In this document: positions 1 to 11,813 of the stretch, piece after piece
Numbering within the stretch: the stretch's first letter is position 1
Layout of the letters: each line of letters opens with the position of its first letter
Source of the DNA: a virus
Lineage: Duplodnaviria > Heunggongvirae > Uroviricota > Caudoviricetes
Reading direction: 5' to 3' (one strand)
DNA length: 11,813 nt
IMG/VR virus record: IMGVR_UViG_2869947659_000003
Location: 1 to 11,813 of that record
Position numbers and translations under genes: made by a program
The notes under the pieces: generated by a model
Databases searched by the model: none
Told to the model about the DNA's origin: nothing
The model's input: only the letters and a program-made list of their open reading frames with translations

Positions 1-819
1 TTAAGCAGCCATCTGATGATATTTTTCCCTGAAGGCTGCCGGGGAGATATTCCCCAGACGAGAGTGACGACGCTGACGATTGTAGAAAATCTCAATGTAT
101 TCCCGTATTACTGAGATGGCTTCATCCCGGTTATTAAAACGATAGTGGCTCAGGCTCTCATTTTTCAGCGTTCCCCAGAAGCTTTCCATCGGAGCGTTGT
201 CGTAACAGTGACCTTTACGCGACATTGATGTTTTCAGACCAGACTGCTCCTGTATGACCCGGTAATCGTATGCGCAGTACTGTGAACCTCGATCAGAGTG
301 GTGGATTAGCCCGGCAGGTGGGCGCTGGCTCCTGAGCGCCATAAACAGGGCTTTACCTGTCAGCTCTTTTGTCATGCGCTCTCCCATGGCGTAGCCGACA
401 ATTTCGCACGTATAAACATCTTTGATGCCAGCGAGGTACAACCATCCCTCCTGTGTGGCAACATACGTCAGGTCCGCCACCCAGACCTGATTTGGTGCTG
501 TAGGAGCGAACGTCTGGTTCAGCAGATTTGGCGCAACTGGCAGATTGTGGTTCGGGTTCGTAGTCGCTCTGAACTTGCGTTTCTGCTTACAGCGTAGCCT
601 TAGCTCCTTACGAAGACGTGCCAGTCGGTCACGACCAACGATGATGCCATTCTCTGCCAGCTCCGTCTGGAGCCGCCGGGTTCCATATGTTTCGCGAGTG
701 CGGATATGTGCCACCTTAATCTCCAGTTTTAGCCGCTCATCACTTTGTTTTCTGTCTGAGGGTTCATGCTGTACCCAGTTGTAATAACCGCTCCTGGATA
801 CACCAAATACCTGACACAT
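1..819 (-). CDS. IS3-family transposase OrfB (DDE/integrase catalytic core), probably made as an OrfAB fusion by -1 frameshift
   Basis: 272-aa ORF with rve-like motifs (HSDRGSQYCAYDY, KGHCYDNAPMESFWGTLK, FYNRQRRHSRLGNISP). Stop codon sits at window positions 1-3. The ATG at 819 is probably not the biological start. Confidence 0.9.
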   Translation of the reverse strand: MCQVFGVSRSGYYNWVQHEPSDRKQSDERLKLEIKVAHIRTRETYGTRRLQTELAENGIIVGRDRLARLRKELRLRCKQKRKFRATTNPNHNLPVAPNLLNQTFAPTAPNQVWVADLTYVATQEGWLYLAGIKDVYTCEIVGYAMGERMTKELTGKALFMALRSQRPPAGLIHHSDRGSQYCAYDYRVIQEQSGLKTSMSRKGHCYDNAPMESFWGTLKNESLSHYRFNNRDEAISVIREYIEIFYNRQRRHSRLGNISPAAFREKYHQMAA

Positions 820-854
820 CGCTTCAATGGGAAATTGTTGTCGCCATTGTTCGA

Positions 855-1157
855 TTAACGCGTATTTTTCAGCGACTCCTGTGCAAAATACGCTGTTGCT
901 TTTTTTAATATATCTCGCTCAAGGCGAGCTTCATTTAACGCCTTACGCAGTTGCAGAATTTCAGATTCCAGTTCAGCCACCGTGCGGGAACCAGGAGTAC
1001 CGAGCCCTTTTCTGGCGGCGGTAACCCATTGTCCTAAAGTGCCTTCAGGAAGGGATAATCGGGAAGCGCCTTCACTGATCGAAAGTTGATTTTCAAGAAC
1101 CGTTCTGACAGCTTCGGCTTTGAACTCTTTAGAGTAACGTTGGTTTTTTCTGCTCAT
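855..1157 (-). CDS. IS3-family transposase OrfA (helix-turn-helix DNA-binding subunit)
   Basis: 100-aa ORF directly upstream of OrfB; N-terminal HTH-like region and C-terminal leucine-zipper-like segment (LESEILQLRKALNEARLERDILKKATAYFA) typical of IS3 OrfA. Confidence 0.85.
   Translation of the reverse strand: MSRKNQRYSKEFKAEAVRTVLENQLSISEGASRLSLPEGTLGQWVTAARKGLGTPGSRTVAELESEILQLRKALNEARLERDILKKATAYFAQESLKNTR
897..908 (-). other. Putative programmed -1 ribosomal frameshift site (A-rich slippery run) near the 3' end of orfA
   Basis: Minus-strand mRNA reads GAT ATA TTA AAA AAA GCA at the codons for ILKKA; the IS3 family typically uses an A AAA AAG-type heptamer here. Not experimentally supported. 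Confidence 0.5.
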
Positions 1158-1256
1158 TATTAGCTCCTTCTGATGCCATTCTATTTCAGGAAGGAGTGTC
1201 CGTTAAACTCAGGCTACCTCAGTTCGCCGCTGGCGAATTTCGAAAATATCAACCAG

Positions 1257-1538
1257 TTACCGCCGTAACCGCTCCGGCTTCTTCCAGTGGTACGTAATTT
1301 TTGCTTTTTCCCTGTACGTCTGCACGCGGCGACGGTAGGCCAGCATTTCAAGAACGCGGATCCGTATGTCGCGCATATCAACATCATTAAGCTGGATACC
1401 ATCACGGCGCATCACCTCAGCAACAACACGCACATAATTTTCAGCGGTCACGCTGTCCGGCTGTGTGGCCTGTTCGTCATGCTGCTGGCTGATTCCGGTA
1501 ACGCGGCGGATTAATCCCAGTAGTTCGGCTTCTGTCAT
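1257..1538 (-). CDS. Hypothetical protein, 93 aa
   Basis: ORF with a G-rich Shine-Dalgarno (GGGGG, 4 nt before the ATG). No recognisable family. Stop codon lies 36 bp from the IS end, so the gene appears intact. Confidence 0.55.
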   Translation of the reverse strand: MTEAELLGLIRRVTGISQQHDEQATQPDSVTAENYVRVVAEVMRRDGIQLNDVDMRDIRIRVLEMLAYRRRVQTYREKAKITYHWKKPERLRR

Positions 1539-1564
1539 TGTGCCCCCATCGCTCTGATAGTCTG

Positions 1565-1640
1565 GTGTCGTCGGGTCCTTCCTGGAATTATGGCCCGTTA
1601 CGGGGCGGCGACCTCGCGGTTTTTCGCTATTTATGAGCTT
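1565..1640 (+). other. Lambda-type cos site, copy 1 (cosQ-like ACGGGTCC-type segment plus cosN; 12-nt cohesive-end sequence GGGCGGCGACCT at 1603..1614)
   Basis: Sequence CGGGTCCTTCCTGG...GTTACGGGGCGGCGACCTCGCGGTTTTTCGCTATTTATGAGC closely matches the lambda genome termini as I recall them (right end ...ACGGGTCCTTTCCGG...GTTACG, left end GGGCGGCGACCTCGCGGGTTTTCGCTATTTATGAAAA). Confidence 0.8.
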
Positions 1641-1649
1641 TTTTAGAGG

Positions 1650-1800
1650 GAGGTTGTTGTTTAATTGTTTGTCATATCCATTTGATAACTAAGTAAAAAT
1701 AAAGAGCAATACAACAACCTGATAGTGTTTTTTTGATGCTAAAAATAAAAAAATGCTAATTGAATCAAATAGTTTTAAAAAAATACGTGGTTGTTGTATT
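1650..1800. repeat. AT-rich region with three GTTGTTGT / ACAACAAC repeats on the cosB side of cos copy 1
   Basis: GGTTGTTGTTT at about 1652, ACAACAACC at about 1710 and GGTTGTTGTAT at about 1790, seen directly. Possible terminase-small-subunit or IHF-type binding elements. Confidence 0.35.
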
Positions 1801-1831
1801 GCGTATTTGATGGCGTAACAGAAAGTGATTT

Positions 1832-2272
1832 TTAACTTTGCTGTTCTGTAACGACTGATTGTTCCATGCTGGCACGGCAAACGCTTACGGCATGACGCCA
1901 CCCAGCCAGAAAGCCGGCCATTTTATTTCGCGCTTTGCTCACTTCTTCCGGTGAGTAGCCGTAAATCTGTAAACCTTCATCAAATCTATGTTCTGTTTCT
2001 TCACTGGAGTACTCGTCACGCTCAGATGAAAGCAGCCTGGCAACCATAATTTTTTCCAGCGCACTGGTTTCTACGTGATATCCAATGGCCTCAAGATGGC
2101 TTTTACCTGAAGACCAAAGCAATGTATGCCCGATGTGATAACCGCCGGACTTTCCGCGATCCGCATTAAGATACGGCATCCCTTGTTTGGTCCATGCGCG
2201 AATAGTGGTTCTGTTTACCTTGAAATGTTCAGCTATTTCCTGCTGACTTACAAAACAAGCCTTATTAATCAT
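1832..2272 (-). CDS. Nu1-like terminase small subunit homologue (N-terminal winged-helix cos-binding domain); candidate packaging-redirection protein
   Basis: N-terminus VSQQEIAEHFKVNRTTIRAWTKQGMPYLNADRGKSGG aligns with lambda Nu1 VNKKQLADIFGASIRTIQNWQEQGMPVLRGGGKG. Only 146 aa versus 181 aa for Nu1, with a divergent C-terminus. RBS GAGGT precedes the ATG; the gene sits about 90 bp downstream of cos copy 2, as in lambda. Confidence 0.8.
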   Translation of the reverse strand: MINKACFVSQQEIAEHFKVNRTTIRAWTKQGMPYLNADRGKSGGYHIGHTLLWSSGKSHLEAIGYHVETSALEKIMVARLLSSERDEYSSEETEHRFDEGLQIYGYSPEEVSKARNKMAGFLAGWRHAVSVCRASMEQSVVTEQQS

Positions 2273-2339
2273 AATGTTACCTCAATTGACTGATTAAATG
2301 TTAATCAAGTGGTGGTGGTGTCACCTTCACGGAAAAACG

Positions 2340-2400
2340 TCATAAATAGCGAAAACCCGCGAGGTCGCCGCCCCGTAACGGCTCCATATGCCGGAAAGGA
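2340..2400 (-). other. Lambda-type cos site, copy 2 (cosQ-cosN; cohesive-end sequence reverse-complemented at 2362..2373), correctly oriented for the Nu1-like gene
   Basis: Minus strand reads ACGGGTCCTTTCCGGCATATGGAGCCGTTACG GGGCGGCGACCT CGCGGGTTTTCGCTATTTATGACG, near-identical to lambda cosQ/cosN. Confidence 0.85.
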
Positions 2401-2405
2401 CCCGT

Positions 2406-2430
2406 AAAAAAAAGCCGGATTTCTCCGGCC
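2406..2430 (-). terminator. Rho-independent terminator downstream of the capsid-like operon
   Basis: Stem GCCGGA / TCCGGC with 4-nt loop, followed on the minus strand by eight U residues. Confidence 0.7.
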
Positions 2431-2435
2431 TTGTC

Positions 2436-2849
2436 TCAGATGGTTTTCAGTATGCGATCGATGTCGCCGTCATCGCCCTGGTTTCTGCCATCGTATGCCA
2501 TGCCAGCTGATACGGCTTGCGGGCTGTGCATGTCCATAAAGTTTTCAAAGGCTGCGGTAAGCTCTGGTGCAACCTTTGGGCGCTCCTGCTCTATGGTCAT
2601 GTTCAGGATTTCACGAGCATTATCGACGCTAATACATGGCACGTTTGCCATTGCACGTAACAGCGGCTGATAGTCTTTATGCTCATGAAGCGCCATAATC
2701 GCATCAGCGCGCGGCTTGTCCTGCTCTTCCAGTTTGTTTAGTTGATATACGGCCTCATAGGTTGATAAACCTCTGTCAGCCATTGCCCGCGCTTCGGCTT
2801 TAAATTTACTCGCCAGCGGTAGCGTCATGATGCTTTCATTCGTTGCCAT
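2436..2849 (-). CDS. Hypothetical protein, 137 aa (last gene of the capsid-like operon)
   Basis: ORF with AGGGGGA Shine-Dalgarno, 12 nt downstream of the gpD-like gene. No recognisable family. Confidence 0.6.
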   Translation of the reverse strand: MATNESIMTLPLASKFKAEARAMADRGLSTYEAVYQLNKLEEQDKPRADAIMALHEHKDYQPLLRAMANVPCISVDNAREILNMTIEQERPKVAPELTAAFENFMDMHSPQAVSAGMAYDGRNQGDDGDIDRILKTI

Positions 2850-2861
2850 CGTTCCCCCTGC

Positions 2862-3197
2862 TTATCGGGCCAGCGGCTGAACGGATACGCCGGAACCCGC
2901 AAAGGCGGCGCATTTTTTCGCATCGGTGTCGACGCTCTCAGGCCAGTTAACGGCGGCAATATTGAATATCCCCGTCTTGTAACACTGTGCTGATTTCTGC
3001 TTTGACGTGTCCACAGGGTACGAGGTCAGATAAACAGCCTTGCCAGATTCCTTACCATCCCACGGCTTAAACTCGCCATTGTCCGCCAGCATCAGCGGGG
3101 TAAATTCCTGAATAACGCCAGCATCAGCGGCAAAATGTACCAGCGTCGTGGCGACCTGCTGACTGCCTGCAAATAACTCAATGTATGGAGTGTCCAT
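2862..3197 (-). CDS. Lambda gpD-like head decoration protein homologue
   Basis: TPLMLADNGEFKPWDG...YKTGIFNIAAVNWPESVDTDAKKCAAFAGSGVSV aligns with lambda gpD TPLMLDTSSRKLVAWDG...[35 protein letters not shown] (from memory). GGGGGA Shine-Dalgarno. Confidence 0.75.
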   Translation of the reverse strand: MDTPYIELFAGSQQVATTLVHFAADAGVIQEFTPLMLADNGEFKPWDGKESGKAVYLTSYPVDTSKQKSAQCYKTGIFNIAAVNWPESVDTDAKKCAAFAGSGVSVQPLAR

Positions 3198-3208
3198 AGA
3201 ATCCCCCG

Positions 3209-4264
3209 TTAACCAATTTTGACGGTAACAAATTTGCGAATATCTGCCGGAACCGGCTGCGGTGCGCTGTGCGTCTGCACGTACTCAATCGCCGGATCGC
3301 CGTCCTCAATCCAGTTTTTCGGGTAAAACATGTTTTGCGTTGCGCCTGTTCTTACTGCGTCCTGATCCATAATCGCACCATAGGCCACCAGCCCTTTATT
3401 GTTGGTGTTGCCCAGAACCAGCAAATCAGGCTCAAGGAAATATTTTTCTGTGCCGTCGCTGTCAGTGTATTTGCCGGAATAGACGATAAGGGCAATATCG
3501 CCCAGATAGCCTTTAAAGCTCACCACTTCGCCCAGGTTTTTACAGGCCAGCTCTGCGGCGGACTCTGAACCACGGGAAAGATCGTACAGCTCACGGAATT
3601 TTTTAAAGCTGCGTAACGTTCGCCATACCTCAGCGCCCATAATCATGACGTTTGCGGGGCAACCAGCCTGATCGGCGTATAGTTCGATATCATAGATTGG
3701 ATCGTGGGTTTCTTTGTCCTGCTCTGACCATTTTTTCCCGTCGGCCTGCTCTATGATGTTTTTTTCCGGTATCTTCCAGTCGATTTCATAGCGCTCTATG
3801 CCTTCGCCCTCAATGATGTTTTTTCCGGTCGTTACCGCATTTACCGCCAGCCATTCCACGCGCGCTTTAATGGCGTTTATCTGGCGGCGCATGTTGCCAG
3901 TAATCAGGCGCATACGGCGATAGGTAGGGTCGTTAAGCTGTGCCGGATCTTCTCCAGCCATGCGCATGATGGTTTTCGTTGGATCGATTTCGTGCTTTGG
4001 CTTCATGTAGCCAGGTTTAATCGTGCTGGTTTCGTACCCTTTATCGCGCTGAACCTGGCTACCCACCATAGGCGAACAAAACGCCGACATGGTGACTTCT
4101 TCAATGTCCAGGGTATCCAGCATGATGTTTTGCGTGCTGAATGTCGCCACGTTCGGGAAAAACAGCGTGGTAAACAGCGGACTGAATTTAAATTCCGCAA
4201 TATCCCCGCGATTCAGGTACGCAAAAAGCTGGTTAGTGTTAAGTACCATTGCTTTTACTGTCAT
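3209..4264 (-). CDS. Lambda gpE-like major capsid protein homologue
   Basis: Conserved blocks along the whole 351 aa shared with lambda gpE: EFKFSPLF, KPGYMKPKHE, DPTYRRMRLI, WSEQDKETHDP, WRTLRSFK, RGSESAAE, SFKGYLGDIALIVYSGKY, LVLGNT, FYPKNWIEDGDPA, QSAP. Start codon overlaps the stop of the upstream 68-aa ORF (TAATG). Confidence 0.9.
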   Translation of the reverse strand: MTVKAMVLNTNQLFAYLNRGDIAEFKFSPLFTTLFFPNVATFSTQNIMLDTLDIEEVTMSAFCSPMVGSQVQRDKGYETSTIKPGYMKPKHEIDPTKTIMRMAGEDPAQLNDPTYRRMRLITGNMRRQINAIKARVEWLAVNAVTTGKNIIEGEGIERYEIDWKIPEKNIIEQADGKKWSEQDKETHDPIYDIELYADQAGCPANVMIMGAEVWRTLRSFKKFRELYDLSRGSESAAELACKNLGEVVSFKGYLGDIALIVYSGKYTDSDGTEKYFLEPDLLVLGNTNNKGLVAYGAIMDQDAVRTGATQNMFYPKNWIEDGDPAIEYVQTHSAPQPVPADIRKFVTVKIG

Positions 4265-4470
4265 TATTCCCCCCCGTGAACCTGATTCATACCCAGCGCC
4301 GCGCGTAAATAGGCGCGTACCTGCCAGCCTGTTGACGGCTCAACCATCGCCAGCGGATCAAGTCCTGCCGCAATGCCTGCTTTTACGTTCTGCTGGTGGC
4401 GTTCCTTGAGCGCCTTCACGATGTCGGGGCTTATGTACACCGAAACACCGCCTTTTTTCTCTTCAGCCAT
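4264..4470 (-). CDS. Hypothetical protein, 68 aa (first gene of the capsid-like operon)
   Basis: AGAGGA Shine-Dalgarno upstream; translationally coupled to the gpE-like gene. No recognisable family. Confidence 0.5.
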   Translation of the reverse strand: MAEEKKGGVSVYISPDIVKALKERHQQNVKAGIAAGLDPLAMVEPSTGWQVRAYLRAALGMNQVHGGE

Positions 4471-4498
4471 AGTAAGAAATTCCTCTTTGACTTAAAAA

Positions 4499-4555
4499 AT
4501 CATAACTGGATGTTCATCCAGTTATGATTATAATCATGATCGCATTTTGTGCAAT
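4499..4555 (-). promoter_or_regulatory. Sigma70-like promoter for the capsid-like operon overlapped by a 30-bp perfect palindrome (candidate operator)
   Basis: Minus strand -35 TTGCAC (4549..4554), 16-bp spacer, -10 TATAAT (4527..4532). Palindrome ATCATAACTGGATG tt CATCCAGTTATGAT at 4499..4528 covers the predicted transcription start. Confidence 0.5.
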
Positions 4556-4633
4556 GATATTGAGTTGCGTTGCAAATTATGAAATGATTATCCCGATCAT
4601 GTGTGTCAGTGCACCAAAAAACCTCATATGCAA

Positions 4634-4672
4634 AAGCCCGATAACCCACCTCTGACCTTATCGGGCTTTTTT
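4634..4672 (+). terminator. Hairpin terminator (10-bp stem AGCCCGATAA / TTATCGGGCT, 13-nt loop, T-run)
   Basis: Seen directly; followed by TTTTTTAT on the plus strand. A weaker U-run follows on the minus strand, so it may act in both directions. Confidence 0.5.
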
Positions 4673-4770
4673 ATCTGCCTGCAAAGATGTTGAACAAAAA
4701 TTAACCACAACCATCATCTTTTTTGCATCAAAACAATTAAAAACAATAAATTACGCTCATGATGATGATG

Positions 4771-4847
4771 ACGATAAAATCACAAAAATGCGCTTTTTTC
4801 CGCGCCTCCCGCCCCGTGTTCAGGCCCACCCCGCCAGGAGGACCCGT
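4771..4847 (-). other. Degenerate third cos-like element (diverged duplicate of cos copy 2)
   Basis: Plus-strand 4771..4869 aligns with 2341..2430 over about 100 bp (…CCGCCCCGT…GGACCCGTAAAAAAGCCGGATTGCTCCGGC). The cohesive-end core is not intact (GGGCGGGAGG instead of GGGCGGCGACCT). Confidence 0.55.
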
Positions 4848-4869
4848 AAAAAAGCCGGATTGCTCCGGC
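4848..4869 (-). terminator. Rho-independent terminator downstream of ssb
   Basis: Stem GCCGGA / TCCGGC with loop, followed on the minus strand by six U residues; near-identical to the terminator at 2406..2430. Confidence 0.7.
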
Positions 4870-4885
4870 TTCTGTCACTCGTCGC

Positions 4886-5308
4886 TTAAAACGGTATGTT
4901 ATCCCCGTACGGATCATCATTCCCCGCCTGTTGTTTTGCCCTGTTCAGCGCGTCAGTAGCCTGGCCCTGTTGACCTTTTTTGCCGCCCAGTCGCGCCGTT
5001 CGCGCACTGATTACACTGTCTGCGATAACCTGCCAGCCCTGCCGCGTTTCCCCGTTCTGTCCGGTCCACTGGCTGACCTGCATCGTGCCGGATACGCTGG
5101 CAACGTCGCCTTTTTGATGTTTAGCCAGGAAGTCGGCCTGCTTACCAAATGCGATGACCGATAGCCATAACGTCGCCTGCCCATCCTGCGCCTGACTACA
5201 TGGCAACGATACCGCCATACGCGCCAGCGTCATCGGTGTGCCCTTGCTGGTCTGTTTTACCTGCGGGTCGTCCACCAGCCGCCCGTAAGCGGCTATCTGT
5301 GCTGTCAT
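4886..5308 (-). CDS. ssb: Single-stranded DNA-binding protein (SSB-like OB-fold protein with acidic C-terminal tail)
   Basis: OB-fold-like core (TLWLSVIAFGKQADFLAKHQKGDVASVSGTMQVSQWTGQNGETRQGWQVIADSV) resembling the E. coli SSB core, and a C-terminal tail ending DDPYGDNIPF (compare the SSB DDDIPF tip). Start overlaps the stop of the upstream ORF (ATGA). Confidence 0.7.
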   Translation of the reverse strand: MTAQIAAYGRLVDDPQVKQTSKGTPMTLARMAVSLPCSQAQDGQATLWLSVIAFGKQADFLAKHQKGDVASVSGTMQVSQWTGQNGETRQGWQVIADSVISARTARLGGKKGQQGQATDALNRAKQQAGNDDPYGDNIPF

Positions 5309-5562
5309 AATTCCACCTCTCCGGTTTTAACGTTGATGGTTGTTACCTGTTCCGCTTCGGCAATCTCCCGCTCTGTCAGCGTGGCAAAGTTTGCCGCTGC
5401 TGTGGTCATGAATGCGCTTATCAGGTCGGGATGTGCTTTCGCGTATCCTTCCCCCGTGTTGCGGTCGATGATTTTTATCGCCACTCTCAGCCAGTGCTCT
5501 GTAAGGTCAATGGCGCGGTTATGCTGCTTCTTCTGATTATTAAGTTTTCCTGATGTGCGCAT
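5305..5562 (-). CDS. Hypothetical protein, 85 aa, translationally coupled to ssb
   Basis: ORF with ATGA overlap to ssb. No recognisable family. Confidence 0.5.
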   Translation of the reverse strand: MRTSGKLNNQKKQHNRAIDLTEHWLRVAIKIIDRNTGEGYAKAHPDLISAFMTTAAANFATLTEREIAEAEQVTTINVKTGEVEL

Positions 5563-5610
5563 TTTTATTTTTACCCCCTCGTTTAAAAAGTTTTGAGTTG
5601 TGCCTCCCCT

Positions 5611-5837
5611 TGTCTACCTTATCTACCTTACTGGCTCTCATGCCAGTAATGGCGCGGCTTTCAGCGGGGTAGAGTGCTTTTATCCACTATCTACCCCGTA
5701 TCTACCTCCCTGTCTGATTCAGGTAAAATCAGGTAGAGAGGGTAGATAGTAGGTAGACAGTGAAAAAAGGCTGTCTACCTAAGTTAATATACTGAATTAA
5801 ATGTATTTTTCTTTACTCAGGTAGACAGGGTAGACAG
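5611..5837. repeat. Iteron array (candidate replication origin) with a DnaA-box-like site
   Basis: At least 11 copies of TCTACC / GGTAGA-containing 8-9-mers in both orientations (for example TGTCTACC 5611, TATCTACC 5620 and 5688, GGTAGAGAG 5732, GGTAGATAG 5741, GGTAGACAG 5752, 5820 and 5829, CTGTCTACC 5771). TTATCCACT at 5680..5688 is an 8/9 match to the DnaA box. Lies immediately 3' of the primase gene. Confidence 0.7.
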
Positions 5838-5850
5838 CCATTGCAAAAAA

Positions 5851-7599
5851 TTATAAAAACGCGTCGCAATCGTCTGTTGTTATTGCGTTAGTCTGCGTTA
5901 CTCCCTTAACTTTCCGCGTAATATATTCATGTCCGTAAACTTTCGCGGCTGGCTTCATAGCCTTGCCAAAGTCATTTACGTTTAGCGGTTTGCTCCTGCC
6001 TGCGTATGCCATAAACGCCAGATAGACGCGGTAAAGGCTGTTTCTGGTCGTGTACTTCACTGAATCGCCACCGCCACCCATCATCAGGCCGCGCGCTTCC
6101 TCCAGAAAATTCAGGAACTGGCAAAACTCAATAACCGGATCCGTCTGTTGCTTTATTGCCAGAGCTTCATCACCGTCACGCTGTTCCAGTAGTAAAGCCC
6201 GTGCCTTCTCAGGGTCGGTAAAGTTCGCCAGCAAGCGGCGGATAATGACAGGGATTTCAGCCGCGATCTTTTCCGGTAGCTCCCTGTCTTTTTCTGCCTC
6301 GCTTACGATATTGTCGAAGCGGAAAATAACCCGACGACGTGACACGCCTCCGGCCCGTTCGGTGAATATCATCGGGTTGTTATTGGTCGCCAGCACCACC
6401 GCCCTGATTACCGTAGTGAAACGCTTTTCATATTTCGGGTTGATTTCCACGGGGTCGCCGCCCGTGATTTTCTTGATGCCCGTGCCTTCGCCTGTATATT
6501 TCGGCTGGTCTGCCAGGACGATAAGACGACTCCCGACAACCTGCGCACGCCCACCAGCATCATCAAGCGATGTCATTTCCGCGCTTACCGTGTTTTGTTT
6601 CCCCGCTAAAAGGCTGGCGATGTGGGTGAATGTACTTTTGCCGCTCCCGCCGTCTCCGGTGGCCTCAATAAACATCTGCCAGTCGTACCGGTTCGCCATA
6701 ATCATGTACAGCGCGGCACATATACGCATCATCTTGCGCTGGTCTTTTCCAGCTGCGTGATCAAGCCATTTATGAAAGTTTGGCGCGTTATCGCGGATGT
6801 TCTCCCCAGGTGCTGGTGGCGTGTACTCAATGCCGTTGTGCGTGGTGATCCAGTTCTCCGGCGTGTGCGGGGAAAATTCCCCCGTTTTCAGGTCAAGCGC
6901 ACCATTGGCGAACGGCAGCAAATCGCCGGACGGCTCCCCCATTGGTTCGGCAATAACTTTTAACGCTTCAACGGCGTTATTGATCACGCGTTTGCTGAAA
7001 GTGGCCCTGTGCTCTGAATAGATCGCCACCATTTCGCGGCTCAGCTCCATTGTGCTGATCGGACACCATACCCCGCCGCGCCATACGTGAACGATTTCAC
7101 TTTCCGGATGCACACAAACGCCATCAAAGCGCTCGGCAAGCAGCTGCGCGCGCTCACTGTCTGCCATTTGTGCCAGTTGCGTATTTTTCTGCTCCGGCAT
7201 GGTAAGCCCTGCGGCAATATTTTCACGCTCAGCATTCAGATAGCGCCGCCAGTTTTCACACTTCTGGACGTGCATTCCTTCGGGGTAAAAATTTGCGTCC
7301 TGAATATCTGCCGCCGCCAGCTTCTGACCAATCTTTTTGGTCTCCACTAAATCCAGTTCTCCGGCCTGGTACAGCCTTACGCGCTTTTTCCCATCCGGAA
7401 CAATTTTCAGCGCATCAAGTTCGGCAAGCTGATTTGGCCCAAGCCACACAGGCGGCACATTATCGCCGGATGCGGGGCCATCCTGCTCCTGCCATTGTTT
7501 CGCGTGCGACCAGGCATCACTACCCGCGAAAATAATTACCTCTGTGTCTTTGTGTTTTATTCCGCGTGGCTGTTTTTTTACGTTCGGTGCCAGTTTCAT
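5851..7599 (-). CDS. P4-family primase/helicase (alpha-like replication protein; D5-type SF3 helicase with Walker A)
   Basis: 582-aa ORF with Walker A EATGDGGSGKST and a downstream Walker B-like LIVLAD segment; overall resemblance to the P4 alpha / phage-plasmid primase C-terminal region. Coupled by ATGA overlap to the upstream small ORF. Confidence 0.88.
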   Translation of the reverse strand: MKLAPNVKKQPRGIKHKDTEVIIFAGSDAWSHAKQWQEQDGPASGDNVPPVWLGPNQLAELDALKIVPDGKKRVRLYQAGELDLVETKKIGQKLAAADIQDANFYPEGMHVQKCENWRRYLNAERENIAAGLTMPEQKNTQLAQMADSERAQLLAERFDGVCVHPESEIVHVWRGGVWCPISTMELSREMVAIYSEHRATFSKRVINNAVEALKVIAEPMGEPSGDLLPFANGALDLKTGEFSPHTPENWITTHNGIEYTPPAPGENIRDNAPNFHKWLDHAAGKDQRKMMRICAALYMIMANRYDWQMFIEATGDGGSGKSTFTHIASLLAGKQNTVSAEMTSLDDAGGRAQVVGSRLIVLADQPKYTGEGTGIKKITGGDPVEINPKYEKRFTTVIRAVVLATNNNPMIFTERAGGVSRRRVIFRFDNIVSEAEKDRELPEKIAAEIPVIIRRLLANFTDPEKARALLLEQRDGDEALAIKQQTDPVIEFCQFLNFLEEARGLMMGGGGDSVKYTTRNSLYRVYLAFMAYAGRSKPLNVNDFGKAMKPAAKVYGHEYITRKVKGVTQTNAITTDDCDAFL

Positions 7600-7895
7600 T
7601 TTTTACCCCTGAATACGTTAAGCATCTTTTTTATTTCCTGAATATTGGCGCGTGCTTTCTCCCTGCTGGTTGGTTTACTGCGGGGCGCTGCCTGTACCAG
7701 AGAAAAATCACGCCGAAACTGATAAACAGGCATCACGCAATCATATTCGTAGCCTTCACGACGGTAGGTGATGCGCCGTTCTGCCACGCCTTTAATCGTT
7801 ACCATGCCGCCATATTTATCGCGGTAAATATCGCCGTTCATAAATTCAGGACGAGCGGGGCCGCTGGCAGTAACGCCAGAATTTTTATTTTTCAT
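7596..7895 (-). CDS. Hypothetical protein, 99 aa, translationally coupled to the primase
   Basis: ORF; stop overlaps the primase ATG. No recognisable family. Confidence 0.6.
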   Translation of the reverse strand: MKNKNSGVTASGPARPEFMNGDIYRDKYGGMVTIKGVAERRITYRREGYEYDCVMPVYQFRRDFSLVQAAPRSKPTSREKARANIQEIKKMLNVFRGKK

Positions 7896-7900
7896 GTTTT

Positions 7901-8131
7901 TTATTCTCCGGTGTGCTGCGCTTTATTATTCTCGTGAATTGCCATCACTGTATTTAATTCATTAATAACAGGCGTTAATAGCGTACGCACGGCAGAAAAC
8001 ATCATTGAATCAGATTCATCGCCACTTTCCGGCACATCAATTAACTTAAGTAGTAATGCGTCCATTTCCTTTGCGCGGATTAATGCGTTTTCAGAGTGGA
8101 TTAATACTTCAAAAGGGATTTTATGCATCAC
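7901..8131 (-). CDS. Hypothetical protein, 76 aa
   Basis: ORF in the same operon orientation. No recognisable family. Confidence 0.5.
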   Translation of the reverse strand: MMHKIPFEVLIHSENALIRAKEMDALLLKLIDVPESGDESDSMMFSAVRTLLTPVINELNTVMAIHENNKAQHTGE

Positions 8132-8405
8132 AAATTTTCTCCCTTATTCTTTTAATGTCCTCATTAAGGATGTCTGTAACTTTTATCAGCGAGTTTTTGG
8201 CAATTATTTTTATTGTTTTAAGTTTTCTTTTGTCGTGCTCCGACTGTGATTTTCTCTCCATAATCTCCACCATGTGGGTAACATCAACGAGCGCACGTAT
8301 CAGTATTTGCATTGCTTCTTCTGCTGCGTCCGGTGTGGTTTTATTGCACATGTACCCCTCCGCATTTTTTTTCGTTAGAAATAAGCGTTCTTCTTTCCTG
8401 TTCAT
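8121..8405 (-). CDS. Hypothetical protein, up to 94 aa (start uncertain; internal ATGs at 8351 and 8309)
   Basis: ORF overlaps the upstream ORF (8341..8571) by 65 nt in a different frame, so the true start may be an internal Met. Confidence 0.4.
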   Translation of the reverse strand: MNRKEERLFLTKKNAEGYMCNKTTPDAAEEAMQILIRALVDVTHMVEIMERKSQSEHDKRKLKTIKIIAKNSLIKVTDILNEDIKRIREKICDA

Positions 8406-8571
8406 CGCTCAGGAATACGCAGACCTCACCGCTAAGGCGTTTAAGTAAGCCGATGATTGCCCCTGATTCGCTGTCGGTCATCATGCCAGGGTAATCCTCT
8501 GCCAGTGCGCAAATAACTTCGATTTGGTGGGCGCGTTCTGCTGCCTGTTGTAGTGTGATTTCCTGACTCAT
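8341..8571 (-). CDS. Hypothetical protein, 76 aa
   Basis: ORF whose ATG overlaps the stop of the upstream 66-aa ORF (ATGA at 8568..8571). Confidence 0.5.
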   Translation of the reverse strand: MSQEITLQQAAERAHQIEVICALAEDYPGMMTDSESGAIIGLLKRLSGEVCVFLSDEQERRTLISNEKKCGGVHVQ

Positions 8572-8768
8572 AAGCCTACCCCCTGACGAATACGGGCGGC
8601 GAATACCATCACGCAGCCATCAGGAGATTGCTGGCGTGCTTCCTGTTCGCTGGTGGCCACGATGTGAATCACGCGCGGTTGTGCGGTGCTCAGGGCGATA
8701 AAACGCCAGATGTATTTATTCAGGTTGTACGAGTCCCGCCCTTGCGGGTGTATGGTATAATTTCTCAT
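8568..8768 (-). CDS. Hypothetical small protein, 66 aa (possibly Icd-like); first gene of the replication operon
   Basis: Sub-ORF MRNYTIHPQGRDSYNLNKYIWRFIALSTAQPRVIHIVATSEQEARQQSPDGCVMVFAARIRQGVGL, taken from the C-terminal end of the 469-aa track ORF, with a GAGG RBS. Its WRF...PRV..I.A.SE.EAR...FAAR pattern resembles what I recall of Icd-like proteins in P4-like prophages; tentative. Confidence 0.45.
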   Translation of the reverse strand: MRNYTIHPQGRDSYNLNKYIWRFIALSTAQPRVIHIVATSEQEARQQSPDGCVMVFAARIRQGVGL

Positions 8769-8859
8769 AGCTGCCTCGATAATCTTGCTATCGTTGGTGG
8801 TTAGAAGCCCCGTTACTGCTCCTACAGTGCGGGGTTTCGTCGTTTCTGCACCTTGCATT

Positions 8860-8945
8860 AACAAGGTGTAAGTAACTTTATTTATAGGTGGCTTACATGT
8901 CAATGCTTTTATGTAAGACTTTTTATGTGTATATTGTCTTACACT
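8860..8945. promoter_or_regulatory. Divergent promoter/operator region with four TGTAAG / CTTACA half-sites
   Basis: TGTAAG at 8867 and 8912, CTTACA at 8892 and 8938; CTTACAT-N12-ATGTAAG forms an inverted repeat. Sits between the plus-strand RHH-like gene and the minus-strand replication operon. Confidence 0.45.
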
Positions 8946-8964
8946 TTCATTGAGAGGATTACAG

Positions 8965-9270
8965 ATGGCTACAGGTTCAAAAAACGCAAAATCACAATCA
9001 CTGACAGCTCGGATCCCGCATGATGTTATTGAAGGCATGGAATCCGTAAAACTGGACGGTGAAAGCAACGCCGGATTCATAGTAACCGCCATGCGCGGTG
9101 AAATCGCCCGCCGCCAGGCAGAAGGAAGCAGAGAAAACCCCCTGATTTCTTCGCTCGATGCACTGGCGCAGGTGGAAAAACTCGGAATCAAAGCCGCCGA
9201 GGAGATCGGGCAGCTCGTCACTGTCGCACGTGAAGAACTCCAGCGCCGCAAGACCAAAGAACCAGAGTAA
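8965..9270 (+). CDS. Probable ribbon-helix-helix (CopG/Arc-like) DNA-binding protein, about 101 aa
   Basis: Strong RBS AGAGGA 6 nt before the ATG at 8965 (the track ORF begins at TTG 8950). N-terminus LTARIPHDVIEGMESVKLDGESNAGFIVTAMRGEIARR fits a beta-strand/helix/helix RHH pattern. Fold assignment is by pattern, not by search. Confidence 0.55.
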   Translation: MATGSKNAKSQSLTARIPHDVIEGMESVKLDGESNAGFIVTAMRGEIARRQAEGSRENPLISSLDALAQVEKLGIKAAEEIGQLVTVAREELQRRKTKEPE

Positions 9271-9327
9271 TCACCATCAGCGCCGTGGTGTAAGGTATTA
9301 CGGCGCATTGCTATGCAGGACAACACA

Positions 9328-9501
9328 ATGACCGATAAAGAATTGACCAAAACATTATCACCGGCACGGAAAAGACGGCGCAGAAAGATAGAGCATGAAT
9401 CAGAAAGATTCGCGCCATGTGCTTTTGCCCTTGAGCAATTCCTTAAAGAGTACAGGGAAAAGCGCTCATTGCAGGTATGGCAACGAACTGAACCAGACTG
9501 A
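9328..9501 (+). CDS. Small basic protein, about 57 aa (the track ORF begins at the upstream ATG 9313)
   Basis: AGGA 7 nt upstream of ATG 9328; N-terminal KRRRRK cluster; followed by a plus-strand terminator. Confidence 0.45.
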   Translation: MTDKELTKTLSPARKRRRRKIEHESERFAPCAFALEQFLKEYREKRSLQVWQRTEPD

Positions 9502-9577
9502 TTGCATTGCCCACCAGCCGCAAATGTGGCATTGTTGGCAATGCTCATGCGTTGGGGATAACGTGTAGCTTGTGTCG

Positions 9578-9609
9578 AGGGGCCACCGTAGCGGGTGGCC
9601 TTTGTTTTG
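9578..9609 (+). terminator. Rho-independent terminator ending the plus-strand cassette
   Basis: Stem GGCCACC / GGTGGCC with loop GTAGCG, followed by TTTGTTTTG. Confidence 0.6.
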
Positions 9610-9612
9610 CCC

Positions 9613-9977
9613 GTTATTCGGCAATTGTGGCGCTTCTCCACATGGTTGATATAATCCCACTGCTCAGATTCATTTTTTGCGCAGTAGGTTAATTGTTCAC
9701 AAAGGCGCTCCGGCAACGGGGCGCTTTTTGTTTTTATTAGTTTGTAGAAACCTGACTCAGAGATAATGCTCATATTCTGATTGCCGTCAGGGGTGTAAGT
9801 TAAATTTACTCCCTTTTTATCATCAAACATCTGCAACACTCTGGCGTTAACAATATTGGTTTCACTCCCGCCAGTAAGGCCGGAAATAACCGGAATACTT
9901 TCGGCAAAATTTTGCAGATTCTGTTTTTCAGGACGAACGAAGCCCCGCCCTTGTTCGGGAGAATATCCAGTATTCAT
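9613..9977 (-). pseudogene. Possible 5' remnant of a gene downstream of alpA (N-terminal ~120 codons of the 469-aa track ORF); extent uncertain
   Basis: The N-terminal part (MNTGYSPEQGRGFVRPEKQ...EQWDYINHVEKRHNC) has protein-like composition. The rest of the 469-aa frame runs antisense through the plus-strand genes and is Ser/Cys/Arg-rich, so it is probably not a real protein. No in-frame stop exists until 8568. Confidence 0.3.
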
Positions 9978-10029
9978 GGTTAGATCTCTGTATTAGTGGA
10001 TGGGTGGCGGCTGTGTGCCGCCAGCCTGA

Positions 10030-10218
10030 TTAGTGAACTGCCTCGCAGCTGTCCTTCCATGCCAGAACTTCGGATAAAGACCAGCCAACGGAACGACCGC
10101 CCAGCTTACGCCGTGATGGGAATTGTCCGGCTTTTTCCAGGCGGTACCGACATGAGCGGCTCAGGCCTGTAAGTTGCTGACATTCTTTTTCACGTATAAA
10201 GCGATCTGTGCTTAACAC
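10030..10218 (-). CDS. alpA: AlpA/Vis-like winged-helix regulator (prophage excisionase / transcriptional activator family)
   Basis: 62-aa protein resembling CP4-57 AlpA and P4 Vis-type proteins in size, composition and position next to a P4-type integrase. Start is GTG at 10218 with AAGGGGGA upstream. Confidence 0.8.
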   Translation of the reverse strand: MLSTDRFIREKECQQLTGLSRSCRYRLEKAGQFPSRRKLGGRSVGWSLSEVLAWKDSCEAVH

Positions 10219-10254
10219 AATTCCCCCTTTGTTGTTTCTTAAAGAGTCATTGGG

Positions 10255-10300
10255 TGGATTATTGGGTTGGGTTGTGTCGGATTGTGTCAGGGTGTTTGTG
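10255..10300. repeat. Tandem roughly 10-bp direct repeats (GGTTGTGTC GGATTGTGTC AGGGTGTTTG) upstream of alpA
   Basis: Seen directly, in the alpA 5' region. Confidence 0.4.
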
Positions 10301-10498
10301 GAATGGCAAACACTGGCGGCGGTCGTTTTACAGAAGCATGGGGAATGAGAATAAAAACTCTTTTAATTCATTATGATGCAAAGGCATAAAATTTTACTTT
10401 TACGCCTTTTTTACATATTTTTAAGAGTGATTCGCCAGTGTATAAAAAAACAGTACACCTATAAAAATCAAATGGTTATTACGATGGCTGATTTTTAA

Positions 10499-10560
10499 CC
10501 CGTTGTTCCATTTTGTTCCTTGTTGTTCGTCGTTGTGTCTCGTTGTTTCACGTTGTCCGC
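10499..10560. repeat. Six tandem roughly 10-bp direct repeats (consensus tCGTTGTTyC) just 3' of the integrase gene
   Basis: CCGTTGTTCC, ATTTTGTTCC, TTGTTGTTCG, TCGTTGTGTC, TCGTTGTTTC, ACGTTGTCCG in helical phase. Candidate binding array for Int arm-binding domain, AlpA/Vis or IHF-type proteins. Confidence 0.4.
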
Positions 10561-10583
10561 ATCCTGAAAAATCGCAAAAAAAA

Positions 10584-11813
10584 TTATATTTCTCTGGCTA
10601 TTGGCAATGTGGTTACGTTTTCATGTGTTCCCGCCAGTATCCCTAACCGCTCCGTCCACATATCCAGCGCGTCACGTTTCGCATCCAGATAACGGGAATG
10701 GTTATAGACTCGTTGCATCCCTGGCATCTGATGACCTGTAAGCTGCTCCACGACGTGAGGATCCACGCCTAAATCGTTCAGCATCGTTGTAAAGGTGCGC
10801 CGGATGTCATGCAGTGACCAGTGAGGGTGTTTTAGCCTCCTGTGCGCTAATCTACCGTACTGCGACACGCTTGTTTCCTGTTTCACTTCCCCCAGCAATA
10901 AGCCCGTGTGCCTGTTCTGCTCCACCAGCTGCGTGACGAACGGTAGTATTGCTTCCGGTATGGGCCGGAATATTGCCACCTTCGTTTTGCTGTGTTCTTT
11001 CGGCACGGTCCAGAGCATTTCGGTAAAATCCCACTCGCTGATCTCCGATAACCTCAGTTCTACCGTCCGGCATCCGAAAACAATCAGGAGGCGGATTAGT
11101 GCGACGTAGTAAGGGGAAAATATTTTTTTGTCCAGTGCCTGCAATAATTCGCCAAGTTCTTTGGTGCTTAAGACACGCTCGCTTATATCCGGTTTTTTCC
11201 TAACGTCCGCCACACTCATATCATCAAGAACGTTGCTGATTGCATAGCGCCGCCTCCGGCAGAACTTAAGCGCCTGTTTGCACGTCTGTAGCAAGAATCC
11301 GGCAGTAACAGGCGTTCGCTTTGCCACCTGGTCAAAACAGGCCAGCCAGTGCCGTAGCTCGCATTTATCCAGCGGCATAGCACCAATGTGCTGTATTACG
11401 TGATTATTAAGGCGCTTTTTCAGGGCGGCATAATCCACGCGGTTTTCCTTTGCGTACGACTCAAGCCAGTAGGTGAGCGCATCGCCAACCGTTACCGGCT
11501 TTAACGCTTCCTGTACGGTGTAATTAAGCTCATGACGTGGATTTTTCCCCTCTGCCAGCCATGCGCGACACTGGGCGGCTTTTTCCCTGGCTGATTTCAG
11601 GCTCAGATCAGGATAATTTCCCAGCTTAATGCGTTCCGGTGGTGCCCCCCTTCCCGTTCCGGCCCTGTAAGTGAAATACCAGGTTAAAAGGCCACTGGTT
11701 GAATGCCTGACGCTCAGGTTTCCACCGTCATTAAGAAAGGCTGTTTTTTGGGCGGGTGTGCCGTTGATTTTCCTCAGCTGTGTATCGCTCAGTTTGTTAA
11801 GTGCTCTGCTCAT
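10584..11813 (-). CDS. int: P4-type tyrosine integrase (site-specific recombinase)
   Basis: 409-aa ORF with N-terminal arm-binding-like region and C-terminal catalytic motifs (HDIRRT, GHQ, RVYNHSRYL with the catalytic Tyr). The ATG is at the window edge; alignment with the P4 Int N-terminus suggests this is close to the true start. Confidence 0.93.
   Translation of the reverse strand: MSRALNKLSDTQLRKINGTPAQKTAFLNDGGNLSVRHSTSGLLTWYFTYRAGTGRGAPPERIKLGNYPDLSLKSAREKAAQCRAWLAEGKNPRHELNYTVQEALKPVTVGDALTYWLESYAKENRVDYAALKKRLNNHVIQHIGAMPLDKCELRHWLACFDQVAKRTPVTAGFLLQTCKQALKFCRRRRYAISNVLDDMSVADVRKKPDISERVLSTKELGELLQALDKKIFSPYYVALIRLLIVFGCRTVELRLSEISEWDFTEMLWTVPKEHSKTKVAIFRPIPEAILPFVTQLVEQNRHTGLLLGEVKQETSVSQYGRLAHRRLKHPHWSLHDIRRTFTTMLNDLGVDPHVVEQLTGHQMPGMQRVYNHSRYLDAKRDALDMWTERLGILAGTHENVTTLPIAREI

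Follow-up and report, generated by a model that had tools for sequence, protein, structure and literature searches.

Among the closest known relatives of the locus described here are the replication origins of phage-inducible islands. In Gram-negative PICIs, the origin is the region immediately 3' of pri-rep, in which two sets of iterons lie around an AT-rich region (Fillol-Salom et al., ISME J 2018, PMC6092414). For one of these islands, EcCICFT073, a temperature-sensitive plasmid that carries the pri-rep-ori segment was shown to persist at the restrictive temperature (Fig. 2b of PMC6092414). Deletion of pri-rep gave zero colonies, and deletion of ori gave significantly fewer colonies without abolishing them (PMC6092414). 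The SaPIs form a different island lineage from the Gram-negative PICIs (PMC6092414). Their Reps load themselves and recognize iterons through a C-terminal winged helix, and their origins have been defined by 6 to 12 iterons that directly follow rep and include an AT-rich region with two or more iterons on either side, in opposite orientation (PMC9371898). Iterons flank an AT-rich melting region in the origins described in both reports (PMC6092414; PMC9371898).

We analyzed a stretch of 11,813 nucleotides from a Caudoviricetes record (IMG/VR IMGVR_UViG_2869947659_000003, positions 1 to 11,813), which we refer to as the window. The original prediction, made from the letters of this stretch, was that a dense repeat array within it is the iteron-type origin of a satellite. 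We compared the array with that of EcCICFT073 (AE014075, 1377749-1389210; locus L003 in our comparisons). The EcCICFT073 intergenic spacer, which corresponds to a 288-bp region here, is approximately 97% identical to that of the window and has the same 11 repeat cores at the same spacing, with a few point differences in the spacers; in both islands the origin lies 3' of pri-rep. Given this identity and the 2018 plasmid assay, the feature is already known: a near-identical copy has been described and functionally tested, and the prediction of an iteron-type origin was right in its essentials. The experimental support for ori function, namely the dependence of a plasmid on pri-rep and ori, comes from the EcCICFT073 sequence. 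We conclude with high confidence that this array serves as the origin of vegetative replication (ori) in a PICI of the EcCICFT073 type.

An EcCICFT073-type island

The following protein-coding features were assigned, with Pfam matches for the gpD-like, gpE-like, SSB, Pri-Rep, DUF4222, AlpA, and Int proteins:

1-1157, minus strand: IS3-family element abutting the island end (orfA 855-1157; orfB 1-819, running off the window)
2862-3197, minus strand: lambda gpD-like decoration protein
3209-4264, minus strand: lambda gpE-like capsid protein
4886-5308, minus strand: SSB
5305-5562, minus strand: 85-aa ORF, directly downstream of ori and followed by the SSB gene
5851-7599, minus strand: pri-rep, putative 582-aa helicase-initiator (D5_N, DUF5906/SF3 P-loop, Pox_D5 C-terminal)
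5878-6144, minus strand: Pri-Rep residues 486-574, predicted winged-helix origin-binding domain (homology to the P4 alpha origin-binding domain, 1KA8)
7596-7895, minus strand: DUF4222 protein
10030-10218, minus strand: AlpA
10584-11813, minus strand: tyrosine integrase (Int)

Judged by its genes, the window is an EcCICFT073-type PICI, a phage satellite of E. coli and Shigella, and does not belong to the P4 type. It has its genes in the order found in EcCICFT073: int, alpA, icd-like, DUF4222, pri-rep, ori, 85-aa ORF, SSB, gpE-like capsid, gpD-like. The window island differs in having an IS3-family element at its flank, and no perC was found between its SSB and capsid genes. The IS3-family element lies beyond a 93-aa ORF (1257-1538).

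Separately, we noted an unusually long ORF of 469 aa (8568-9977, minus strand) that covers a region with several small genes in related islands, including an Icd-like gene and a BRO-N fragment. In some genomes a 446-aa "Icd-like" protein is annotated at this position. An ORF on the plus strand (8950-9270) overlaps the 469-aa ORF, at the position of a YlcI/YnfO-family gene in related islands. The 469-aa ORF could be a fusion or could be spurious.

The iterons form a near-perfect dyad

The intergenic region (5563-5850, 288 bp) is flanked by pri-rep and the 85-aa ORF, both on the minus strand. It contains the following features:

5585-5594, minus strand: AAAACTTTTT box (A-run/C/T-run), 24 nt past the last iteron
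5613-5834, both orientations: iteron array taken as ori, with 11 exact TCTACC cores and the consensus CTRTCTACCY
5628-5667, no strand: GC-rich spacer (46 bp, GC 57%), mirror of the AT-rich spacer
5680-5688, plus strand: DnaA-box-like TTATCCACT, an 8/9 match judged fortuitous
5780-5819, no strand: AT-rich spacer (GC 17%), bordered by iteron 5774 and the pair 5820/5829, presumed DNA-unwinding element

There are exactly 11 exact copies of TCTACC/GGTAGA at 5613-5834 and only 2 more in the rest of the 11.8-kb window. This total of 13 compares with 2.7 +/- 1.5 expected from dinucleotide shuffles, and none of 200 shuffles reached it. Five cores are on the plus strand (5613, 5622, 5690, 5701, and 5774) and six on the minus strand (5668, 5732, 5741, 5752, 5820, and 5829). 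The stop codon of pri-rep occupies 5851-5853, and the array starts 16 nt past it. It had been predicted that at least 11 copies in both orientations lie within about 230 bp immediately 3' of this gene; with 11 cores at these positions and so short a distance to the stop, the coordinates, the copy count, and the placement were all correct, and our computational count and phasing of the repeats agree with them. Aligned beyond the core, the repeats extend to approximately C-n-C-T-(G/A)-TCTACC-(T/C).

The start-to-start spacing of the iterons is 9, 46, 22, 11, 31, 9, 11, 22, 46, and 9 nt. The array is a near-perfect dyad: five plus/minus pairs of iterons have a common center at 5723.5, which was matched by none of 2,000 random placements, and the eleventh iteron (5732) adjoins this center. 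This is a new but incremental point. In the window and in the complete islands compared with it (L001, L002, L003, L007, and L088), the TCTACC cluster is confined to one 222-bp stretch per island. We also considered a degenerate twelfth iteron, CTGTCTGAT (5709-5717), as a mirror partner of 5732. It was not counted because it is absent from the variant Combat2C1, described below.

Spacers and signals between the iterons

The AT-rich tract at 5780-5819 lies in the pri-rep-proximal half of the array and separates two iterons (5820 and 5829) from the other nine. The minus-strand pair faces the plus-strand iteron 5774 and others across this tract, and with 11 iterons in all the array has the layout by which SaPI origins were defined. 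Most of the related arrays shown carry an AT-rich tract at the equivalent position. The original prediction had pointed to AT-rich flanks. The left flank (5560-5599) is indeed low in GC, at 27.5%, but the strongest tract is the one inside the array.

The GC-rich spacer has a palindrome, TTACTGGC/GCCAGTAA, with an 8-bp stem (5628-5635 and 5642-5649), and its DNA fold has an energy of -10.3 kcal/mol (z = -3.5). Within 5628-5667, the segment GCCGCGCCATTACTG (minus strand) is kept in all of the E. coli ori variants. It is also partly kept in arrays of Symbiopectobacterium and Raoultella, and arrays of the TTCACC class are AT rich at that position. Past the last iteron, an A-run/C/T-run box like AAAACTTTTT was found at a distance of 15 to 27 nt in 13 of 38 arrays, compared with a background of 0.12 per kb per strand. 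These 13 include 12 of the 18 TCTACC arrays, the window itself being among the carriers.

A DnaA-box-like site with an 8/9 match had also been proposed as part of the origin. The site, TTATCCACT, is present at 5680-5688, but it does not appear to be an origin element. Eight-of-nine matches to TTATCCACA number 5 in the window against 2.4 expected, and 21 of 200 shuffles reached 5; the site in question, the sole such match in the array, does not have the conserved final A of the DnaA box (TTATCCACA or TTWTNCACA); and unrelated sequence replaces it in Combat2C1, GF60, and WL1467, although their iterons are kept. Because of this chance-level frequency, the missing final A, and the loss in three variants, we rejected a DnaA box and a DnaA-dependent origin. 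The array contains no site matching the IHF consensus WATCAANNNNTTR, and no Rfam family reached its gathering score anywhere in the window. On the minus strand of the intergenic region, we found neither a promoter-like (sigma-70) nor a terminator-like site. Transcription of pri-rep probably continues across the origin to the 85-aa ORF and the SSB gene, which are probably part of the same replication module.

Cores are kept while spacers diverge

Close variants of the island let us compare the cores with the sequence between them. In Combat2C1, Pri-Rep is 99% identical to that of the window, and the spacer region is only 77% identical. Nine of its 11 cores are exact, the other two read TCTACA, and the sequence between the cores is scrambled. 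That cores are kept where spacers have diverged indicates, at the level of sequence comparison, that selection acts on the TCTACC cores. GF60 and WL1467, whose C-terminal domains are 92 to 93% identical to that of the window, have TCTACC in a nearly equal layout, with CCC replacing CTG before the core.

The EcCICFT073 Pri-Rep is 90% identical to that of the window overall, 97 to 100% over residues 151-582, and 100% over residues 481-582, whereas the N-terminal 150 residues are only 69% identical. The same residues (1-150) are the variable part among alleles in general, with 68 to 100% identity between alleles against 96 to 100% for the remainder. The allele of this part tracks the allele of the overlapping upstream DUF4222 gene (7596-7895).

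Pri-Rep resembles a helicase-initiator

The array was predicted to be recognized by the C-terminal domain of the adjacent gene product, as in P4 alpha. We found that Pri-Rep residues 486-574 match PDB 1KA8, the origin-binding domain of P4 alpha, by phmmer (E = 1.1e-6, covering residues 2-89 of the 100-aa chain). This domain contains the wing TRKVKGVTQTN. Residues 186-430 match the SaPI5 PriRep helicase (PriRep5; 7OLA) with an E value of 2e-14. The SaPI match covered the helicase core only and not the C-terminal domain, and SaPIs further differ from the window in their iteron sequences and in the phylum of their host, being Staphylococcus aureus islands.

The gene had been called a primase/helicase gene. 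The helicase part of this description stands, the protein being of the SF3 type, but the primase part does not: no Zn-ribbon or Toprim domain was detected. The whole protein matches only D5_N, DUF5906, and Pox_D5 in Pfam, with no primase catalytic domain detected, and residues 1-150 match no Pfam family even at E <= 0.1. P4 alpha, in contrast, matches Zn_Ribbon_Prim and Toprim_3 in its N-terminal primase, and residues 1-150 of Pri-Rep (7150-7599) stand in the place of that region. The "primase" label of the 582-aa protein stems from TIGR01613 (primase_Cterm). Its domain matches thus identify the protein as a helicase-initiator rather than a primase. With no primase domain detected in Pri-Rep, host DnaG presumably provides the priming.

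Iteron class tracks the C-terminal domain

We then asked how iterons and Pri-Rep domains vary together across more distant loci. A search with the whole Pri-Rep protein provided no diversity, as its best 120 matches were all E. coli or Shigella sequences with 98 to 100% identity. We therefore used a contig scan with one genome per species, which gave 80 loci with homologues 41 to 98% identical. A dense array, defined as at least 6 copies of one hexamer within 400 bp past the stop, was present in 37 of about 75 loci with sufficient downstream sequence. The orientation pattern ++-+++--+-- is common to many of these arrays, though their iteron sequences differ. TCTACC arrays were found in Rosenbergiella, Xenorhabdus, Symbiopectobacterium, Raoultella, and Pantoea, and P4-type TTCACC arrays in Klebsiella, Raoultella, Citrobacter, Pluralibacter, and Xenorhabdus. 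Further iteron types in other loci were GTGTTCAT, GTATACAC, GTCACT, ACTGTCC, CAGTGCC, and CCCTACC.

The wing of the C-terminal domain follows the EY.TR.[IV][KN]G..QTN motif where the array is of the TCTACC class and the Y.[KR][RK].[TS]K.G.I[RQ][ST]N motif where it is of the TTCACC class. When pairs of loci with like helicase-core identity were compared, those of one iteron class had the clearly more similar C-terminal domains: among pairs with 0.7 to 0.8 helicase-core identity, C-terminal identity was 0.71 for the same iteron class and 0.44 for different classes. In a logistic model for a shared iteron class, the C-terminal domain had a coefficient of +11.6 and the helicase core one of -4.2. 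These statistics rest on phylogenetically related, non-independent pairs, and because of this the co-variation is supportive, not conclusive, evidence that iteron class follows the C-terminal domain and not the helicase core. Together with the 1KA8 match, it supports the prediction that this domain reads the iterons as in P4 alpha, and it likewise favors the further claim that iteron sequence sets replicon specificity. L021 and L068 have CTGTCTACC-type iterons beside a C-terminal domain that is about 30 to 34% identical to that of the window; thus, the mapping of domain to iteron is not one-to-one.

The Pri-Rep/alpha homologue is the sole protein always found alongside TCTACC arrays. In many of the loci, AlpA, Int, DUF4222, and the 85-aa ORF are either missing or unrelated. 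The iterons most likely bind the island's own helicase-initiator.

One pair of loci stood out as a side observation. The Pri-Reps of L009 (Escherichia sp. ESNIH1) and L010 (Pseudocitrobacter faecalis) are 99% identical and differ at 17 alignment positions. The differences in the origin-binding domain are at 506, 520, 565, and 568 (window numbering), of which 565 (T/N) and 568 (V/M) are in the wing. Their iterons differ throughout (GGTGTTCAT versus GGTATACAC) in the same layout about 260 bp past the stop of the Pri-Rep homologue, and L009 retains a few hybrid iteron copies. The pair has the look of a natural switch in specificity in which the repeats evolved in concert.

Comparison with P4 crr and alternative explanations

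The alpha protein of P4 has a homologous SF3 helicase core and a homologous C-terminal origin-binding domain (1KA8). The crr element of P4 (4291-4590) comes immediately 3' of the alpha gene, whose stop is at 4636, and has ten type-1 repeats in both orientations within 300 bp. Given this location, the window array is the positional counterpart of crr. The P4 type-1 iteron TGTTCACC is related to TGTCTACC of the window, agreeing at 6 of 8 bases, but is itself not found in the window array, where the iteron is CTRTCTACCY. Both P4 and the window have an A-run/C/T-run box past their last iteron pair; in P4 (L004) similar runs occur at about 4470-4485 and 4290-4305, after the last iteron pair of both crr repeats. 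The two elements differ in internal organization, crr consisting of two direct 120-bp repeats and the window array of an inverted duplication. The P4 annotation also places a terminator between alpha and crr, whereas none is predicted in the window, and the remaining gene content of P4 is unlike the PICI genes of the window.

This likeness raises the question of whether the array is an auxiliary cis element that acts like crr to enhance or organize replication through looping, with initiation elsewhere or by host DnaA at TTATCCACT. Its position directly 3' of an alpha homologue, the A-run/C/T-run box that it has in common with the crr repeats, and the one 8/9 DnaA-like match inside it would all fit such a role, and P4 needs both ori and crr. 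However, P4 has two TTCACC clusters (ori and crr) 4.5 kb apart, while complete PICIs have a single TCTACC cluster. Moreover, cloned EcCICFT073 pri-rep with its 3' region sufficed to drive a plasmid (PMC6092414), and the DnaA-like site is no commoner than chance predicts and is missing from variants that look functional. We consider an auxiliary role very unlikely.

The repeats could instead be operators for an island transcription factor (AlpA, a PerC-like protein, the 85-aa protein, or Int) acting on the SSB/capsid operon. The array does lie upstream of the 85-aa ORF, SSB, and capsid genes in an island that is transcribed entirely one way. However, no sigma-70-like promoter was found on the minus strand of the intergenic region. 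In Nissle, the ori is 96% identical to that of the window, but AlpA similarity is undetectable and Int is 24% identical. In addition, the 85-aa ORF is absent alongside the TCTACC arrays of Xenorhabdus, Rosenbergiella, Symbiopectobacterium, and Pantoea, and AlpA and DUF4222 are mostly undetected there. We consider an operator function very unlikely as well. Finally, the array is an imperfect 225-bp inverted duplication and might be taken for the relic of a decaying long palindrome or repeat without present function, but we give this next to no credence, as the cores are preserved while the spacers drift, the layout is conserved across genera and iteron classes, and the region is present in hundreds of E. 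coli genomes (see below).

A model for initiation at the array

We therefore return to the array as the origin of replication. Upon induction, the island would make its Pri-Rep, a hexameric SF3 helicase whose C-terminal part is a winged-helix origin-binding domain. The winged-helix domain would bind the CTRTCTACCY iterons, which form two mirror-image sets of five with a further copy near the center. Bound Pri-Rep would then melt the AT-rich tract at 5780-5819 and load itself as the helicase, probably as one hexamer per half-origin. Host enzymes would replicate the excised island, presumably with priming by DnaG. The iteron sequence, read by the wing, would decide which Pri-Rep fires which origin. 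In this scheme we infer that the C-terminal domain contacts the iterons directly, where the DNA melts, that loading is as a double hexamer, and that the host provides priming.

The self-loading scheme is modeled on SaPI, and the double-hexamer step is by analogy with other SF3 origins. In SV40 and papillomaviruses, the core origin has dyad-symmetric initiator sites with an AT-rich tract on one side and a palindrome on the other, and initiation at these double-hexamer origins is by an SF3 helicase that carries an origin-binding domain of its own. The likeness to the window is one of functional analogy, as those origins have 4 sites against 11 here and their origin-binding domain is N-terminal rather than C-terminal to the helicase.

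A broader reading would join three parts: a cassette common to PICI ori and P4 crr, the reprogramming of specificity through wing residues, and primase loss with reliance on host priming. According to the first part, PICI ori and P4 crr would be two versions of an ancient modular cassette that travels with the alpha/Pri-Rep gene; it would be a dyad of about 6 + 6 sites for two hexamers, with an AT-rich spacer in one half and a GC-rich palindrome spacer in the other. According to the second, all iterons of an origin would change in concert with residues of the wing, of which two (565 and 568) might be enough, as the L009/L010 pair suggests. According to the third, PICI-type proteins would have lost the primase and would depend on host priming. 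We offer this reading tentatively, as one that is plausible and somewhat likelier to fail in some part than to hold as a whole.

The feature itself adds nothing new to what was described in 2018 (Fillol-Salom et al.). What the comparisons contribute are testable refinements and not discoveries: a dyad layout that is kept from one iteron class to another, the homology to crr by position, the two-residue specificity switch, and the lack of a primase domain. The array marks the island as what is very probably an autonomously replicating phage satellite, and it would show which Pri-Rep allele can fire its origin. This is relevant to the use of PICI replicons as vectors and to cross-activation or incompatibility among islands with the same ori.

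Distribution of the origin in E. coli

We determined how widespread the origin is among 5,426 complete E. coli genomes. The intergenic region was present in 424 of them, at 435 places, all chromosomal. The islands with a matching intergenic region are about 11 kb and are located at yejM/tRNA-Pro, cspD-clpS, and roxA(ycfD)-phoQ; yejM, cspD-clpS, and roxA(ycfD)-phoQ are listed as E. coli PICI attachment sites in Table S1 of Fillol-Salom et al. 2018 (PMC6092414). E. coli genomes carry up to three places with the TCTACC ori type. Thus, islands that the same Pri-Rep could fire coexist in one chromosome, and the question of cross-activation would arise among up to three islands per genome. In the phage collection, the intergenic region had no match, and the pri-rep gene matched P4 alpha only, and weakly.

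Two loci deserve separate mention. L089 (CP088587.1, "plasmid" pD17EC0246-3) is a 32.5-kb circle with an island whose ori is 95.5% identical to that of the window. The island is still flanked by the chromosomal genes pntAB, mlc, clcB, and mdtIJ, and the circle is either an assembly artifact or a product of in-place replication of the island. The other locus, L088 (E. coli AR_0013, NZ_CP032204.1, 3437850-3453137), matches the window at 100% identity in its ori and is essentially identical to it in the pri-rep module. Its island genes encode an HK97-type capsid, portal, protease, head-tail connector, HNH, and TerS/TerL, where the window has gpE-like and gpD-like genes, and we take it to be a capsid-forming PICI. 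Comparison of L088 with the window shows that the replication module is exchanged between PICI types.
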